A stretch of DNA of 64,000 bases from Escherichia coli. Lineage in GTDB: Bacteria > Pseudomonadota > Gammaproteobacteria > Enterobacterales > Enterobacteriaceae. The translations under genes and the position numbers were made by a program. The DNA lies in the NCBI RefSeq assembly GCF_003790525.1, contig NZ_CP033635.1; one strand, given 5' to 3'. Positions 30,295-53,787 of this stretch are shown here, piece after piece; positions within the stretch are counted from its first letter, which is position 1, and each line of letters starts with the position of its first letter. The notes below the pieces were generated by a model, which was not told the DNA's origin, did no database searches, and saw only the letters and a list, made by a program, of their open reading frames with translations.

Positions 30295-31035
30295 GTGAAG
30301 TTCAAAGTTATCGCCCTGGCGGCATTAATGGGTATTAGCGGGATGGCAGCGCAGGCTAACGAATTGCCGGATGGACCGCATATTGTCACCTCCGGTACGG
30401 CAAGCGTGGATGCGGTGCCAGACATTGCCACTCTTGCGATTGAAGTCAACGTGGCCGCGAAGGATGCCGCTACTGCCAAGAAACAGGCGGATGAGCGCGT
30501 CGCACAATACATTTCCTTCCTTGAACTCAATCAGATCGCGAAAAAAGATATCAGCTCAGCGAACTTACGCACCCAGCCAGATTATGATTATCAGGATGGT
30601 AAAAGTATCCTGAAAGGCTACCGTGCTGTGAGAACGGTGGAAGTCACGCTCCGTCAGTTAGACAAACTGAATTCCTTGCTGGATGGCGCGCTGAAGGCGG
30701 GTCTTAACGAAATTCGTTCTGTGTCGCTGGGCGTGGCGCAGCCGGATGCCTATAAAGACAAAGCGCGTAAGGCAGCGATTGATAACGCGATTCATCAGGC
30801 GCAGGAACTGGCGAACGGCTTTCATCGTAAACTGGGGCCGGTATATAGCGTGCGCTACCATGTTTCCAACTATCAGCCCAGCCCAATGGTGCGGATGATG
30901 AAAGCCGATGCCGCGCCGGTGTCCGCCCAGGAAACTTACGAGCAGGCCGCTATTCAGTTTGATGATCAGGTCGATGTGGTCTTCCAGTTAGAACCTGTGG
31001 ATCAACAACCCGCTAAAACACCTGCAGCACAATAA
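30295..31035 (+). CDS. yggE: periplasmic oxidative-stress defense protein (DUF541/SIMPL)
   Basis: 246-aa ORF with signal peptide MKFKVIALAALMGISGMAAQA; matches YggE. Confidence 0.85.
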   Translation: MKFKVIALAALMGISGMAAQANELPDGPHIVTSGTASVDAVPDIATLAIEVNVAAKDAATAKKQADERVAQYISFLELNQIAKKDISSANLRTQPDYDYQDGKSILKGYRAVRTVEVTLRQLDKLNSLLDGALKAGLNEIRSVSLGVAQPDAYKDKARKAAIDNAIHQAQELANGFHRKLGPVYSVRYHVSNYQPSPMVRMMKADAAPVSAQETYEQAAIQFDDQVDVVFQLEPVDQQPAKTPAAQ

Positions 31036-46013: not shown

Positions 46014-47216
46014 ATGCAAAGTGTTGATGTAGCCATTGTTGGTGGCGGCATGGTGGGGCTGGCGGTTGCCTGCGGCTTACAGGGGAGCGGCTTACGCGTT
46101 GCTGTACTGGAGCAGCGCGTACCGGAACCTCTGGCGGCGGATGCACCACCACAACTGCGCGTTTCGGCTATCAATGCCGCCAGCGAAAAATTACTCACCC
46201 GTCTTGGCGTCTGGCAGGACATTCTCTCTCGTAGGGCCAGCTGTTATCACGGTATGGAAGTGTGGGACAAAGACAGTTTTGGTCACATCTCGTTTGACGA
46301 TCAAAGCATGGGCTATAGCCATCTTGGGCATATCGTTGAAAACTCAGTGATTCACTACGCGCTGTGGAACAAAGCGCAGCAGTCGTCAGATATCACTCTG
46401 TTGGCCCCCGCAGAATTACAGCAGGTCGCCTGGGGAGAAAATGAAACCTTCCTGACGTTGAAAGATGGCAGTATGTTAACGGCGCGTCTGGTGATTGGCG
46501 CGGACGGCGCTAATTCCTGGTTGCGCAACAAAGCAGATATTCCGCTGACTTTCTGGGATTATCAGCATCACGCGCTGGTAGCGACCATTCGCACGGAAGA
46601 ACCGCATGATGCGGTGGCGCGGCAGGTTTTCCATGGCGAAGGCATTCTGGCCTTTTTACCGCTTAGCGATCCGCATCTTTGCTCGATTGTCTGGTCACTG
46701 TCGTCAGAGGAAGCGCAGCGGATGCAGCAGGCAAGTGAAGACGAATTTAATCGCGCGTTAAATATCGCTTTTGATAATCGCCTGGGCTTATGCAAGGTTG
46801 AGAGCGCGCGTCAGGTGTTCCCACTGACGGGGCGTTATGCGCGCCAGTTTGCCGCGCACCGTCTGGCGCTGGTGGGCGACGCCGCGCATACCATTCACCC
46901 GCTGGCGGGGCAGGGGGTAAATCTTGGCTTTATGGATGCTGCAGAGCTGATTGCTGAACTGAAACGGTTGCATCGTCAGGGTAAAGACATCGGGCAGTAC
47001 ATTTATCTGCGTCGCTATGAGAGTAGCCGCAAGCACAGTTCGGCGCTGATGCTGGCTGGTATGCAGGGATTCCGTGATCTGTTTTCCGGTACCAATCCGG
47101 CGAAAAAACTGCTGCGTGATATTGGTTTGAAACTGGCCGACACGCTTCCTGGCGTTAAACCACAACTCATCCGCCAGGCAATGGGATTAAACGATTTGCC
47201 TGAATGGCTGCGTTAA
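46014..47216 (+). CDS. ubiI: 2-octaprenylphenol hydroxylase (FAD monooxygenase)
   Basis: 400-aa ORF MQSVDVAIVGGGMVGLAVACGLQGSGLRVAVLEQ matches UbiI (VisC). Confidence 0.92.
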   Translation: MQSVDVAIVGGGMVGLAVACGLQGSGLRVAVLEQRVPEPLAADAPPQLRVSAINAASEKLLTRLGVWQDILSRRASCYHGMEVWDKDSFGHISFDDQSMGYSHLGHIVENSVIHYALWNKAQQSSDITLLAPAELQQVAWGENETFLTLKDGSMLTARLVIGADGANSWLRNKADIPLTFWDYQHHALVATIRTEEPHDAVARQVFHGEGILAFLPLSDPHLCSIVWSLSSEEAQRMQQASEDEFNRALNIAFDNRLGLCKVESARQVFPLTGRYARQFAAHRLALVGDAAHTIHPLAGQGVNLGFMDAAELIAELKRLHRQGKDIGQYIYLRRYESSRKHSSALMLAGMQGFRDLFSGTNPAKKLLRDIGLKLADTLPGVKPQLIRQAMGLNDLPEWLR

Positions 47217-47662
47217 AAATTTCTCTTCTGTTGTTTATTTGATACCCATCACACTTTCATCTCCCGGTTTTTTCGCCGGGAGATTTTCCTCATTTGAAAT
47301 AAACTAATTTCACCTCCGTTTTCGCATTATATTTTCTAATGCTATGATTTTTTGATTTAGTGTTTTTTGACATTTTTTTAGTTCTTAATATTGCCTTATT
47401 CAAATTAACTTTCTAATGGCATCATCTTTATATAGAAACTAGAGTGTTTTTTGGTTTTTTATTCTGTCGCGATTTTGGCGTTTTTTAACCATAAGCTAAT
47501 GTGATGATCAATTTTACCTTATGGTTAACAGTCTGTTTCGGTGGTAAGTTCAGGCAAAAGAGAACGATTGCGTTGGGGACCGGGAGTGGCTCCGATGCTG
47601 GGTTTCGTGGTGATAATTTCACCATGAAAAGTTGTCAGCCCCGCTTATTCAATGAGGACAAG

Positions 47663-48757
47663 ATGGCACAACAGACTCCTTTGTACGAACAACACACGCT
47701 TTGCGGCGCTCGCATGGTGGATTTCCACGGCTGGATGATGCCGCTGCATTACGGTTCGCAAATCGACGAACATCATGCGGTACGTACCGATGCCGGAATG
47801 TTTGATGTGTCACATATGACCATCGTCGATCTCCGCGGCAGCCGCACCCGGGAGTTTCTGCGTTATCTGCTGGCGAACGATGTGGCGAAGCTCACCAAAA
47901 GCGGCAAAGCCCTTTACTCGGGGATGTTGAATGCCTCTGGCGGTGTGATAGATGACCTCATCGTCTACTACTTTACTGAAGATTTCTTCCGCCTCGTTGT
48001 TAACTCCGCCACCCGCGAAAAAGACCTCTCCTGGATTACCCAACACGCTGAACCTTTCGGCATCGAAATTACCGTTCGTGATGACCTTTCCATGATCGCC
48101 GTACAAGGGCCGAATGCGCAGGCAAAAGCTGCCACACTGTTTAATGATGCTCAGCGTCAGGCGGTGGAAGGGATGAAACCGTTCTTTGGCGTGCAGGCGG
48201 GCGATCTGTTTATTGCCACCACTGGTTATACCGGTGAAGCGGGCTATGAAATTGCGCTGCCCAATGAAAAAGCGGCCGATTTCTGGCGTGCGCTGGTGGA
48301 AGCGGGTGTTAAGCCATGTGGCTTGGGCGCGCGTGACACGCTGCGTCTGGAAGCGGGCATGAATCTTTATGGTCAGGAGATGGACGAAACTATTTCTCCT
48401 TTAGCCGCCAACATGGGCTGGACTATCGCCTGGGAACCGGCAGATCGTGACTTTATCGGTCGTGAAGCCCTGGAAGTGCAGCGTGAGCATGGTACAGAAA
48501 AACTGGTTGGTCTGGTGATGACCGAAAAAGGCGTGCTGCGTAATGAACTGCCGGTACGCTTTACCGATGCGCAGGGCAACCAGCATGAAGGCATTATCAC
48601 CAGCGGTACTTTCTCCCCGACGCTGGGTTACAGCATTGCGCTGGCGCGCGTGCCGGAAGGTATTGGCGAAACGGCGATTGTGCAAATTCGCAACCGTGAA
48701 ATGCCGGTTAAAGTGACAAAACCTGTTTTTGTGCGTAACGGCAAAGCCGTCGCGTGA
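47663..48757 (+). CDS. gcvT: glycine cleavage system T protein (aminomethyltransferase)
   Basis: ORF 47501..48757; [41 protein letters not shown] matches GcvT. Confidence 0.95.
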
Positions 48758-48780
48758 TTTACTTTTTTGGAGATTGATTG

Positions 48781-49170
48781 ATGAGCAACGTACCAGCAGA
48801 ACTGAAATACAGCAAAGAACACGAATGGCTGCGTAAAGAAGCCGACGGCACTTACACCGTTGGTATTACCGAACATGCTCAGGAGCTGTTAGGCGATATG
48901 GTGTTTGTTGACCTGCCGGAAGTGGGCGCAACGGTTAGCGCGGGCGATGACTGCGCGGTTGCCGAATCAGTAAAAGCGGCGTCAGACATTTATGCGCCAG
49001 TAAGCGGTGAAATCGTGGCGGTAAACGACGCACTGAGCGATTCCCCGGAACTGGTGAACAGCGAACCGTATGCAGGTGGCTGGATCTTTAAAATCAAAGC
49101 CAGCGATGAAAGCGAACTGGAATCACTGCTGGATGCGACCGCATACGAAGCATTGTTAGAAGACGAGTAA
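48781..49170 (+). CDS. gcvH: glycine cleavage system H protein (lipoyl carrier)
   Basis: [34 protein letters not shown] matches GcvH. Confidence 0.95.
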
Positions 49171-49287
49171 CGGCTTTATTCCTCTTCTGCGGGAGAGGAT
49201 CAGGGTGAGGAAATTTACACCTCACCCTCACTCTCTTCGCAAGGAGAGAGGTTCACAATTCACTGCACGTTTCAGGAACCATCGCTC

Positions 49288-52161
49288 ATGACACAGACGT
49301 TAAGCCAGCTTGAAAATAGCGGCGCTTTTATTGAACGCCATATCGGACCGGACGCCGCGCAACAGCAAGAAATGCTGAATGCCGTTGGCGCACAATCGTT
49401 AAACGCGCTGACCGGCCAGATTGTACCGAAAGATATTCAGCTTGCGACCCCGCCGCAGGTTGGCGCACCGGCGACCGAATACGCCGCGCTGGCGGAACTC
49501 AAGGCTATTGCCAGTCGCAATAAACGCTTCACGTCTTACATCGGCATGGGTTACACCGCCGTGCAGTTACCGCCGGTTATCCTGCGTAACATGCTGGAAA
49601 ATCCGGGCTGGTATACCGCGTATACTCCGTATCAACCTGAAGTCTCGCAGGGCCGCCTTGAGGCACTGCTCAATTTCCAGCAGGTAACGCTGGATTTAAC
49701 CGGGCTGGATATGGCCTCTGCTTCTCTTCTTGACGAAGCCACCGCTGCCGCCGAAGCAATGGCGATGGCGAAACGCGTCAGCAAACTGAAAAATGCCAAC
49801 CGCTTCTTCGTGGCTTCCGATGTGCATCCGCAAACGCTGGATGTGGTCCGTACTCGTGCCGAAACCTTTGGTTTTGAAGTGATTGTCGATGATGCGCAAA
49901 AAGTGCTCGACCACCAGGACGTCTTCGGCGTGCTGTTACAGCAGGTTGGCACTACCGGTGAAATTCATGACTACACTGCGCTTATCAGCGAACTGAAATC
50001 ACGCAAAATTGTGGTCAGCGTCGCCGCCGATATTATGGCGCTGGTGCTGTTAACTGCGCCGGGTAAACAGGGCGCAGATATTGTCTTTGGTTCGGCGCAA
50101 CGCTTCGGCGTGCCGATGGGCTACGGTGGCCCACACGCGGCATTCTTTGCGGCGAAAGATGAATACAAACGCTCAATGCCGGGCCGTATTATCGGTGTAT
50201 CGAAAGATGCAGCTGGCAATACCGCGCTGCGCATGGCAATGCAGACTCGCGAGCAACATATTCGCCGTGAGAAAGCGAACTCCAACATTTGTACTTCCCA
50301 GGTACTGCTGGCAAACATCGCCAGCCTGTATGCCGTTTATCACGGTCCGGTTGGCCTGAAACGTATCGCTAACCGCATTCACCGTCTGACCGATATCCTG
50401 GCGGCAGGCCTGCAACAAAAAGGTCTGAAGCTGCGCCATGCGCACTATTTCGACACTCTGTGTGTGGAAGTGGCCGACAAGGCGGGCGTACTGGCGCGTG
50501 CCGAAGCGGCTGAAATCAACCTGCGTAGCGATATCCTGAACGCGGTGGGGATCACCCTTGATGAAACCACCACGCATGAAAACGTAATGCAGCTTTTCAG
50601 CGTACTACTGGGGGATAACCACGGGCTGGACATCGACACGCTGGACAAAGACGTGGCTCACGACAGCCGCTCTATCCAGCCTGCGATGCTGCGCGACGAT
50701 GAAATCCTCACCCATCCGGTGTTTAATCGCTACCACAGCGAAACCGAAATGATGCGCTATATGCACTCGCTGGAGCGTAAAGATCTGGCGCTGAATCAGG
50801 CGATGATCCCGCTGGGTTCCTGCACCATGAAACTGAACGCCGCCGCCGAGATGATCCCAATCACCTGGCCGGAATTTGCTGAACTGCACCCGTTTTGCCC
50901 GCCAGAACAGGCCGAAGGTTATCAGCAGATGATCGCGCAGCTGGCTGACTGGCTGGTGAAACTGACCGGTTACGACGCCGTTTGTATGCAGCCGAACTCC
51001 GGCGCACAGGGCGAATACGCGGGCCTGCTGGCGATTCGTCATTATCATGAAAGCCGCAACGAAGGGCATCGCGATATCTGCCTGATCCCGGCTTCTGCGC
51101 ACGGAACTAACCCCGCTTCTGCACATATGGCAGGAATGCAGGTGGTGGTTGTGGCGTGTGATAAAAATGGCAACATCGATCTGGCTGATCTGCGCGCGAA
51201 AGCGGAACAAGCGGGCGATAACCTCTCCTGTATCATGGTGACCTATCCTTCCACCCACGGCGTGTATGAAGAAACGATCCGTGAAGTGTGTGAAGTCGTG
51301 CATCAGTTCGGCGGTCAGGTTTACCTTGATGGCGCGAACATGAACGCCCAGGTCGGCATCACCTCACCGGGCTTTATTGGCGCGGACGTCTCGCACCTTA
51401 ACCTGCATAAAACTTTCTGCATTCCGCACGGTGGCGGCGGCCCTGGTATGGGACCGATCGGCGTGAAAGCGCATCTGGCACCGTTTGTGCCAGGTCATAG
51501 CGTGGTACAAATTGAAGGCATGTTAACCCGTCAGGGCGCGGTTTCTGCGGCACCGTTCGGTAGCGCATCCATTCTGCCAATCAGCTGGATGTACATCCGT
51601 ATGATGGGCGCAGAAGGGCTGAAAAAAGCAAGCCAGGTGGCAATTCTTAACGCCAACTATATTGCCAGCCGCCTGCAGGATGCTTTCCCGGTGCTGTATA
51701 CCGGTCGCGACGGTCGCGTGGCGCACGAATGTATTCTTGATATTCGTCCGCTGAAAGAAGAAACCGGCATCAGCGAACTGGATATTGCCAAGCGTCTGAT
51801 CGACTACGGTTTCCACGCGCCGACCATGTCATTCCCGGTGGCGGGTACGCTGATGGTTGAACCGACTGAATCTGAAAGCAAAGTGGAACTGGATCGCTTT
51901 ATCGACGCGATGCTGGCTATCCGCGCAGAAATTGACCAGGTGAAAGCCGGTGTCTGGCCGCTGGAAGATAACCCGCTGGTGAACGCGCCGCACATTCAGA
52001 GCGAACTGGTCGCCGAGTGGGCGCATCCGTACAGCCGTGAAGTTGCAGTATTCCCGGCAGGCGTGGCAGACAAATACTGGCCGACAGTGAAACGTCTGGA
52101 TGATGTTTACGGCGACCGTAACCTGTTCTGCTCCTGCGTACCGATTAGCGAATACCAGTAA
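49288..52161 (+). CDS. gcvP: glycine dehydrogenase (decarboxylating), P protein
   Basis: 957-aa [41 protein letters not shown] matches GcvP. Confidence 0.95.
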
Positions 52162-52184
52162 TTTACTGATTCGACTATCTTCTA

Positions 52185-52206
52185 AAGGCGCTTCGGCGCC
52201 TTTTTC
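52185..52206 (+). terminator. gcvP intrinsic terminator
   Basis: ggcgc-ttcg-gcgcc (UUCG tetraloop) followed by ttttt. Confidence 0.65.
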
Positions 52207-52326
52207 GCTTGTTAATAAAGTGCGCTTTGTGTGTTTCGGCTGAGGCGTAATATAAAATATTGCGAGCTCAATATATTAAAAGAGTGCCAGGCCTGATGAG
52301 CGGAGCACATCAGGCACATCGGCTAA

Positions 52327-53787
<1,461 letters not shown>

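Follow-up and report, generated by a model that had tools for sequence, protein, structure and literature searches.

A probable decayed BoxC repeat pair between gcvH and gcvP of Escherichia coli, with an abundant RNA 3' end at its central hairpin

REP (BIME) sequences reportedly act as intercistronic mRNA stabilisers, for example at malE-malF, a role that Newbury, Higgins and colleagues are said to have described in 1987. ERIC (IRU) elements have been reported to modulate mRNA stability in Yersinia. Another repeat, BoxC, is said to have been first described near envM. BoxC, PIT (potential intrastrand triplex) and TMECO are successive names for this one repeat, whose consensus is CCCTCNCCC-N3-6-GGGNGAGGG-N3-GGGNGAGGG (Holder et al. 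2015, PMC4666352). Strain MG1655 carries 23 intact TMECO copies, five sites being occupied by inverted pairs, which always join a type-A unit (TTA loop) to a type-B unit (CCG loop), and Holder et al. also mention "mutated" or degenerated TMECOs at variable loci (PMC4666352). Petrillo et al. 2008 catalogued 22 BoxC copies (PMC2267715). TMECO loci have been tied to greater local variability, with no expression-linked placement bias (Holder et al., PMC4666352), and PIT elements, according to the summary of work from the Maher laboratory given by Holder et al., lack promoter and terminator activity and have no effect on RNA polymerase. The further BoxC/PIT literature, as cited in the same paper, comprises Bergler 1992, Bachellier in the 1990s, and Hoyne & Maher 2000. 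RNA 3' ends have been described separately by Dar & Sorek 2018 (PMC6061677), who showed that, in E. coli, stable stem-loops that lack a U-tract both mark the precise 3' ends seen at steady state and shield them from PNPase and RNase II.

The DNA analysed here is a 64,000-nucleotide stretch of an O157-like E. coli strain (contig NZ_CP033635.1), referred to below as the window, which carries gcvT-gcvH-gcvP. The gcvH stop codon (49168-49170) and the gcvP ATG at 49288 enclose a spacer of 117 nt (49171-49287). An initial annotation of this spacer had described three inverted repeats, the outer two being near-direct repeats of one another. All three proved to be present at the positions it gave, and folding of the spacer RNA extended each of them to a hairpin of 8-9 bp (Table 1) whose energy none of 200 shuffled sequences matched. 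The resemblance of hairpins 1 and 3 was likewise borne out, at 75% identity over 16 nt and 90% over 10 nt. The entire spacer folds on its plus strand to -44.2 kcal/mol (z = -4.7, with none of 200 shuffles as good), and the minus strand folds nearly as well (z = -4.3). Comparable folding on both strands is the mark of a palindromic repeat in DNA, and is unexpected for a strand-specific RNA. Jointly, the three hairpins form a larger imperfect palindrome with 29-nt arms of 72% complementarity around a 9-nt centre. RNAalifold, applied to ten BoxC-bearing spacers, returned an alternative single long hairpin in place of three, with little covariation and with one arm out of register; since a palindrome of palindromes permits both folds and the alignment is misregistered, we did not use this result as evidence on function. 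A search of positions 47000-52500 against Rfam in E-value mode gave chance-level matches only, the best over the spacer being MIR5516 with 21.7 bits (gathering threshold 93) and whalefall-1 with 19.8 (gathering threshold 37).

Table 1. Features of the gcvH-gcvP spacer, in window coordinates
Feature	Position	Strand	Structure or sequence	Assignment	Energy (kcal/mol)
Hairpin 1	49180..49199	+	8 bp including one G-U; loop UGCG	Probable S1/S2 of left BoxC unit	-12.6
Hairpin 2 (central, most stable)	49202..49228	+	9 bp; 9-nt A/U-rich loop	Probable S3 segments of both units of the convergent pair, paired	-15.6
Hairpin 3	49231..49250	+	8 bp including one G-U; GNRA-type loop, GCAA in the window and GUAA in K-12	Probable S2'/S1' of right BoxC unit	-12.2
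Left unit	49180..49211	+	S1 TCCTCTTCT (49180-88); S2 GGGAGAGGA (49191-99); loop 2 TCA; S3 GGGTGAGGA (49203-11)	Putative degenerate BoxC/TMECO; top match in the window for both HMMs	
Right unit	49220..49252	-	Inverted, convergent with left unit	Putative BoxC/TMECO, more decayed; second-best match for both HMMs	
Term-seq 3' end equivalent	49232	+	4 nt past the 9-bp central stem	Mapped from K-12	
gcvP leader	49258..49287	+	ATTCACTGCACGTTTCAGGAACCATCGCTC; Shine-Dalgarno AGGA at 49274-49277	Outside the repeat	

Two profile HMMs, one built from 20 MG1655 TMECOs and the other from 22 BoxC copies, were run over both strands of the window (128 kb). With each model the two best matches in the 64 kb were the two halves of the spacer block: 49188-49210 (+; E 0.006) and 49251-49220 (-; E 2.4) with the TMECO model, and 49210-49191 (-; E 0.006) and 49216-49251 (+; E 0.05) with the BoxC model. 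Either half is weak alone; what makes the case at the level of sequence is that the two best matches lie side by side and point towards one another. The S2-N3-S3 part of the left unit, at 49191-49211, fits the consensus with two mismatches and S1 has three C-to-T changes. The left unit as a whole departs from the consensus at about 5 of the 24 positions that it specifies, and its first loop is shortened. The right unit has decayed further; it pairs with the left half as a 29-nt inverted repeat, and aligns to the intact type-A units found in Enterobacter spacers. A scan of the 64-kb window with the strict TMECO motif gave no match to its S1-loop-S2 part, and the gcvH-gcvP copy is missing from both published MG1655 lists (Holder et al.; Petrillo et al.).

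Profile similarity, together with the positional homology described below, identifies 49180-49252 as, in all probability, a decayed convergent BoxC pair. It is of a known kind, and the gcvH-gcvP copy is a previously uncatalogued, degenerate member. We have filed it as an apparent derivative rather than as an intact, triplex-competent TMECO, and the mismatches make an intrastrand purine-motif DNA triplex improbable at this copy. A convergent BoxC pair explains the three-stem-loop shape. The pyrimidine and purine arms of the units would give the outer hairpins, and the terminal G-rich segments, which lie on opposite strands and face each other, would give the central one. Hairpins 1 and 3 resemble direct repeats because a self-complementary hairpin, when inverted, reads as a direct repeat.

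With the E. coli copy as query, BLAST against 5,426 E. coli genomes returned no match but the locus itself, the copy being too short and too decayed. The family came to light only when an intact Enterobacter homologue was used: across 5,426 complete E. coli genomes, the number of places matched by the E. asburiae spacer had a median of 18 per genome and a maximum of 32. The E. coli matches inspected were canonical BoxC pairs in intergenic positions (yhjG/yhjE and phnK/phnL), and the gcvH-gcvP copy is likewise intergenic. A BoxC copy sought downstream of fabI was not found there; in the table of Holder et al. the fabI-side copy sits between fabI and ycjD (PMC4666352).

We then compared the gcvH-gcvP spacers of 79 species, located through GcvH. 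Conservation in related species, the check that the initial annotation had set for its own reading, went against a dedicated gcv element: the stem-loops are not conserved across Enterobacteriaceae, where conservation is limited to the final ~30-45 nt ahead of the gcvP ATG. A cleaner version of the E. coli structure is present in Enterobacter cloacae, E. asburiae, Pseudocitrobacter, Buttiauxella, Siccibacter and several other Enterobacteriaceae, with the layout CCCTCTCCC-loop-GGGAGAGGG-CAG-GGGTGAGGG ... CCCTCACCC-TAA-CCCTCTCCC-loop-GGGAGAGGG, and in the spacer alignment the pair lies between the same flanks in all five of those named. The BoxC HMM matches these positional homologues with E values of 1e-9 to 7e-14, apart from Siccibacter, which is weak (E about 1). 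The intact pairs, in Enterobacter, Pseudocitrobacter and Buttiauxella, have a B-type unit on the left and an A-type unit on the right, as in the published pairing rule; the loops are CCG/CAG on the left and TTA on the right in the homologues, and in E. coli both have drifted, to TCA and TGA.

Elsewhere the same spacer holds something else. REP-type repeats occupy it in Citrobacter werkmanii and relatives, Lelliottia, Trabulsiella and Pseudescherichia; ERIC/IRU elements do so in C. youngae CCUG 30791, C. koseri and Kluyvera; and in Erwinia and Rosenbergiella it is nearly empty (8-23 nt). From this comparison, the gcvH-gcvP spacer appears to be a slot that is filled in related genera by other small palindromic repeats. 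Some spacers were unusually long, at 319 nt in Serratia marcescens (L073) and 445 nt in a Providencia metagenome-assembled genome (L077), the latter with an ERIC-like sequence in three tandem copies. A terminator-like G+C hairpin followed by a T-run lies directly after gcvH in Photorhabdus, Providencia, Serratia, Yersinia, Pectobacterium, Dickeya, Shewanella and Idiomarina, which suggests that attenuation between gcvH and gcvP is widespread outside Enterobacteriaceae.

The block is single-copy in E. coli and fixed there, being found at 95% identity or more in 5425 of 5426 genomes. The remaining complete genome had no match to the spacer, and in one E. coli record the replicon that carries the gcvH-gcvP locus bears the label of a plasmid. 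A closer comparison took in six E. coli strains together with a divergent Escherichia. Among the six, the stems are invariant and substitutions are confined to the central loop or the loop of hairpin 3. The central loop (49211-49219) is a hot spot for mutation in the species, with five variants in the six strains, including a 1-nt indel. Next to it, the tandem CCTCAC-CCTCAC at 49220-49231 has a third copy in strain TW10590, a 6-nt slippage duplication. Template-switch correction of quasi-palindromes can yield loop-only variation without selection. The pattern seen here is compatible with selection on the stems and with quasi-palindrome mutation equally, and does not prove function.

The region just downstream of the operon also differs between strains. 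Immediately after the gcvP terminator, K-12 carries ygfF and a convergent BoxC/TMECO pair that is intact (Holder numbers 10 and 11); both are missing from the window. Similarity to K-12 ends at 52205, just past the gcvP terminator, and a GH1 (BglA-like) gene follows at 52327-53784 on the minus strand. The strain-variable segment starts exactly at the site of the K-12 BoxC pair, which agrees with the reported TMECO-linked variability.

An RNA 3' end at this spacer was found in published Term-seq data for K-12 MG1655 (Adams et al. 2021, eLife, PMC7815308, supplementary file 1). It lies at 3,049,097 (-), is classed as "orphan", and has 412,219 reads under one growth condition and 171,112 under a second (PMC7815308); we infer that the former was LB at OD 0.4, since the gcvT-internal count equals the LB 0.4 rows of file 3. 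The larger count exceeds that at the gcvP terminator end (3,046,123; 36,065 reads; PMC7815308) about 11-fold and is by far the highest among the RNA ends listed for the operon, with the proviso that Term-seq counts are not transcript abundances and that a decay fragment, if very stable, could produce a high peak without physiological effect. Checked on the K-12 sequence, the RNA ends in ...GGGUGAGG-loop-CCUCACCCU-CACU, which is the central stem plus 4 nt; the position is transferred from K-12 to the window strain by homology, the stems being identical in both. The same register recurs in the family. At four other BoxC loci, all of them intact, the Term-seq end falls exactly at stem + 4 nt (847200-, 3781065+, 3959467- and 4231270-); at a fifth intact locus it falls at +11 (632098+). 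Around a nearby gcvP-internal 3' end, DirectRNA-seq coverage falls only from 220 to 159 between flanking 800-nt windows (-BCM), and read-through into gcvP is therefore substantial. The main text of Adams et al. does not mention gcv (PMC7815308), and our search of the literature on the gcvH/gcvP intergenic region, Term-seq and ribosome profiling found nothing specific to the spacer.

The same Term-seq data list strong 3' ends at the start of the operon. One, an orphan ~56 nt upstream of the gcvT ATG, has 80,101 reads in one condition, and another, 65 nt inside gcvT, has 105,625 and 81,687 reads (PMC7815308). These ends, at K-12 3,050,723 and 3,050,602 (-), correspond to about 47607 and 47728 in the window if collinearity is assumed. 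They raise the possibility that transcription stops early, or that the RNA is processed, in the gcvT leader; the main text of Adams et al. is silent on these ends.

We consider it probable that the block is a decayed BoxC pair whose transcribed hairpins act as a 3'-end barrier for the gcvTH mRNA. The RNA forms the hairpins because the spacer is transcribed within gcvTHP, and, as expected of a REP-like 3'-end protector, a stable hairpin lies in this transcribed spacer with a steady-state 3' end at its 3' base. After cleavage or termination downstream, the hairpins would block 3'-to-5' exonucleases and so leave a stable gcvT-gcvH 3' end, with some transcripts continuing into gcvP; weak terminator action of the hairpins is a less likely alternative to such a barrier. 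The gcvTH message could thus exceed the gcvP message, and we infer from this mechanism that the GcvH:GcvP ratio might also be affected. The proposal in the initial annotation of an intra-operon processing or stability element accordingly survives in one part, the abundant 3' end in K-12, and fails in the other, a dedicated and conserved gcv element. For a role as a modulator of translational coupling to gcvP, which it had also raised, no support was found, the hairpins ending 37 nt upstream of the gcvP ATG.

The strongest competitor confines the block to the DNA level, as a repeat relic that does nothing as RNA and is either neutral or, as proposed for TMECO, a cause of local genetic instability, with the Term-seq peak being a stable decay fragment. 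Holder et al. link TMECO to variability and to no expression role (PMC4666352); the five central-loop variants in six strains, the 6-nt slippage polymorphism and the absence from the window of the K-12 BoxC pair and ygfF all fit such a reading, and genera such as Erwinia and Rosenbergiella have no structure in the spacer at all. We nevertheless think this reading unlikely, because the RNA 3' end is very abundant in at least two growth conditions and other BoxC copies show equal stem + 4 ends. A hairpin-protected end upstream of gcvP should in itself prolong the upstream message, and in a degenerate copy so far off the triplex consensus a triplex-based effect on DNA is the less likely. A partial terminator or attenuator between gcvH and gcvP, intrinsic or Rho-dependent, would also place a 3' end at stem + 4 nt of the central hairpin, and has a parallel in the terminator-like hairpin and T-run that follow gcvH in many Enterobacterales outside Enterobacteriaceae and in Shewanella and Idiomarina. 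This is quite improbable, however. The tail beyond the central stem is CACUCUCUU, and the U-tract that goes with a G+C hairpin in an intrinsic terminator is not there; a consensus scan of the plus strand of the spacer gave no terminator-like site; and PIT elements, as summarised in PMC4666352, are reported to be without terminator activity. As to Rho, the supplements of Adams et al. hold no Rho termination region with a coordinate starting 30487-30492, and their Rho score for the neighbouring gcvP-internal 3' end is 1.31, called "No" (PMC7815308).

That the block is instead a dedicated, selected cis-regulatory RNA, evolved for the gcv operon to govern processing, stability or gcvP translation, is very unlikely. 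The fold is strong, the stems are invariant while the loops alone vary in the sampled E. coli, the block has reached fixation (5425 of 5426 genomes), and an abundant RNA 3' end sits at the central hairpin. Against these points stand the membership of the sequence in the dispersed BoxC family and its replacement by REP or ERIC in Citrobacter, Lelliottia and Kluyvera, or its absence in Erwinia and Rosenbergiella, a cross-genus comparison by which this reading is already largely refuted. The minus strand folds equally well, Rfam gave no match, the hairpins lie 37 nt from the gcvP ATG and clear of the Shine-Dalgarno sequence, and template switching at quasi-palindromes can itself give loop-only variation.

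A small open reading frame in the spacer was also considered and rejected. It has 28 codons, running from a GTG at 49205 to a TGA at 49291, so that its stop would overlap the gcvP start as ATGA and could couple translation of the two. The frame is present in the window, and the purine-rich, Shine-Dalgarno-like GGGAGAGGA precedes its GTG. A 1-nt insertion in the central loop breaks it in K-12 and others, however, with K-12 reaching a stop after 12 codons; L003 carries further indels, K-12 has no annotation there, and the frame lies inside the repeat. The chance that it is a coupling peptide is negligible, as the frame is not conserved within E. coli.

Downstream of the repeat, the gcvP leader is nearly invariant across Enterobacteriaceae genera and is the sole conserved part of the spacer, the sequence upstream of it being replaced. 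It may serve gcvP as a signal for translation or for processing. A small hairpin that takes up the Shine-Dalgarno region by pairing (UUCACUG...CAGGAA) is predicted, but the T-to-C change that is the sole common variant has no compensating change.

A broader reading can be offered only tentatively, and we would not expect it to hold as a whole: that BoxC/TMECO copies in general are 3'-end-defining, exonuclease-blocking hairpins equal to REP, and that the gcvH/gcvP junction is a selected punctuation slot. Such a slot would be filled convergently by BoxC, REP, ERIC or a terminator across Gammaproteobacteria, in each case giving more gcvT/gcvH than gcvP message.

What had looked like a bespoke regulatory structure becomes the relic of a known dispersed repeat, which explains its shape. 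The analysis joins two fields that had been unconnected, the study of BoxC/PIT/TMECO as a DNA-structure element and genome-wide mapping of RNA 3' ends; the 3' end was already in a published table, where it was left uninterpreted. The additions are small and testable, namely that BoxC hairpins coincide with stem + 4 ends and that the slot is variously filled, and they will hold little surprise for specialists. If the barrier is real, it would provide a simple mechanism for unequal expression within gcvTHP, of the H and T proteins relative to the P protein, and would give the BoxC family its first plausible consequence at the RNA level. The practical gain is modest, as any stable hairpin would be expected to act likewise.

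Set beside the known systems, the gcvH-gcvP copy most closely resembles BoxC/PIT/TMECO. It shares with that family the order of pyrimidine arm, loop, purine arm, 3-nt loop and second purine segment, and the intergenic, convergent two-unit arrangement with a short central spacer, and intact copies stand at the same position in other genera. It departs from the BoxC norm in being degenerate and in lying within an operon, between two cistrons; its centre is 9 nt, compared with 16-27 nt in the four convergent pairs of K-12 (computed from Table 1 of PMC4666352). The family has been described without a function in expression, unlike the role read here.

The likeness to REP/BIME is one of situation: each is a palindromic repeat of a dispersed family that sits in a transcribed spacer between cistrons, with hairpins that oppose 3' exonucleases and so let the message of the upstream cistron outlive that of the downstream one, presumptively so in the BoxC copy, and REP occupies the very same slot in Citrobacter, Lelliottia, Trabulsiella and others. 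The two differ in sequence family, and stabilisation by the gcvH-gcvP copy is conjectural. We know of no link between BoxC and RayT/TnpA(REP). ERIC/IRU is a further enterobacterial palindromic repeat found in this spacer (C. youngae, C. koseri, Kluyvera and others), but is unrelated in sequence and far longer, at about 127 bp. Finally, the protective 3' stem-loops that Dar & Sorek 2018 (PMC6061677) described for Rho-dependent transcripts resemble the central hairpin in having no U-tract and a precise steady-state 3' end immediately downstream, and differ in that the gcvH-gcvP copy is intra-operonic, away from the operon's end, and gives no indication of Rho dependence.
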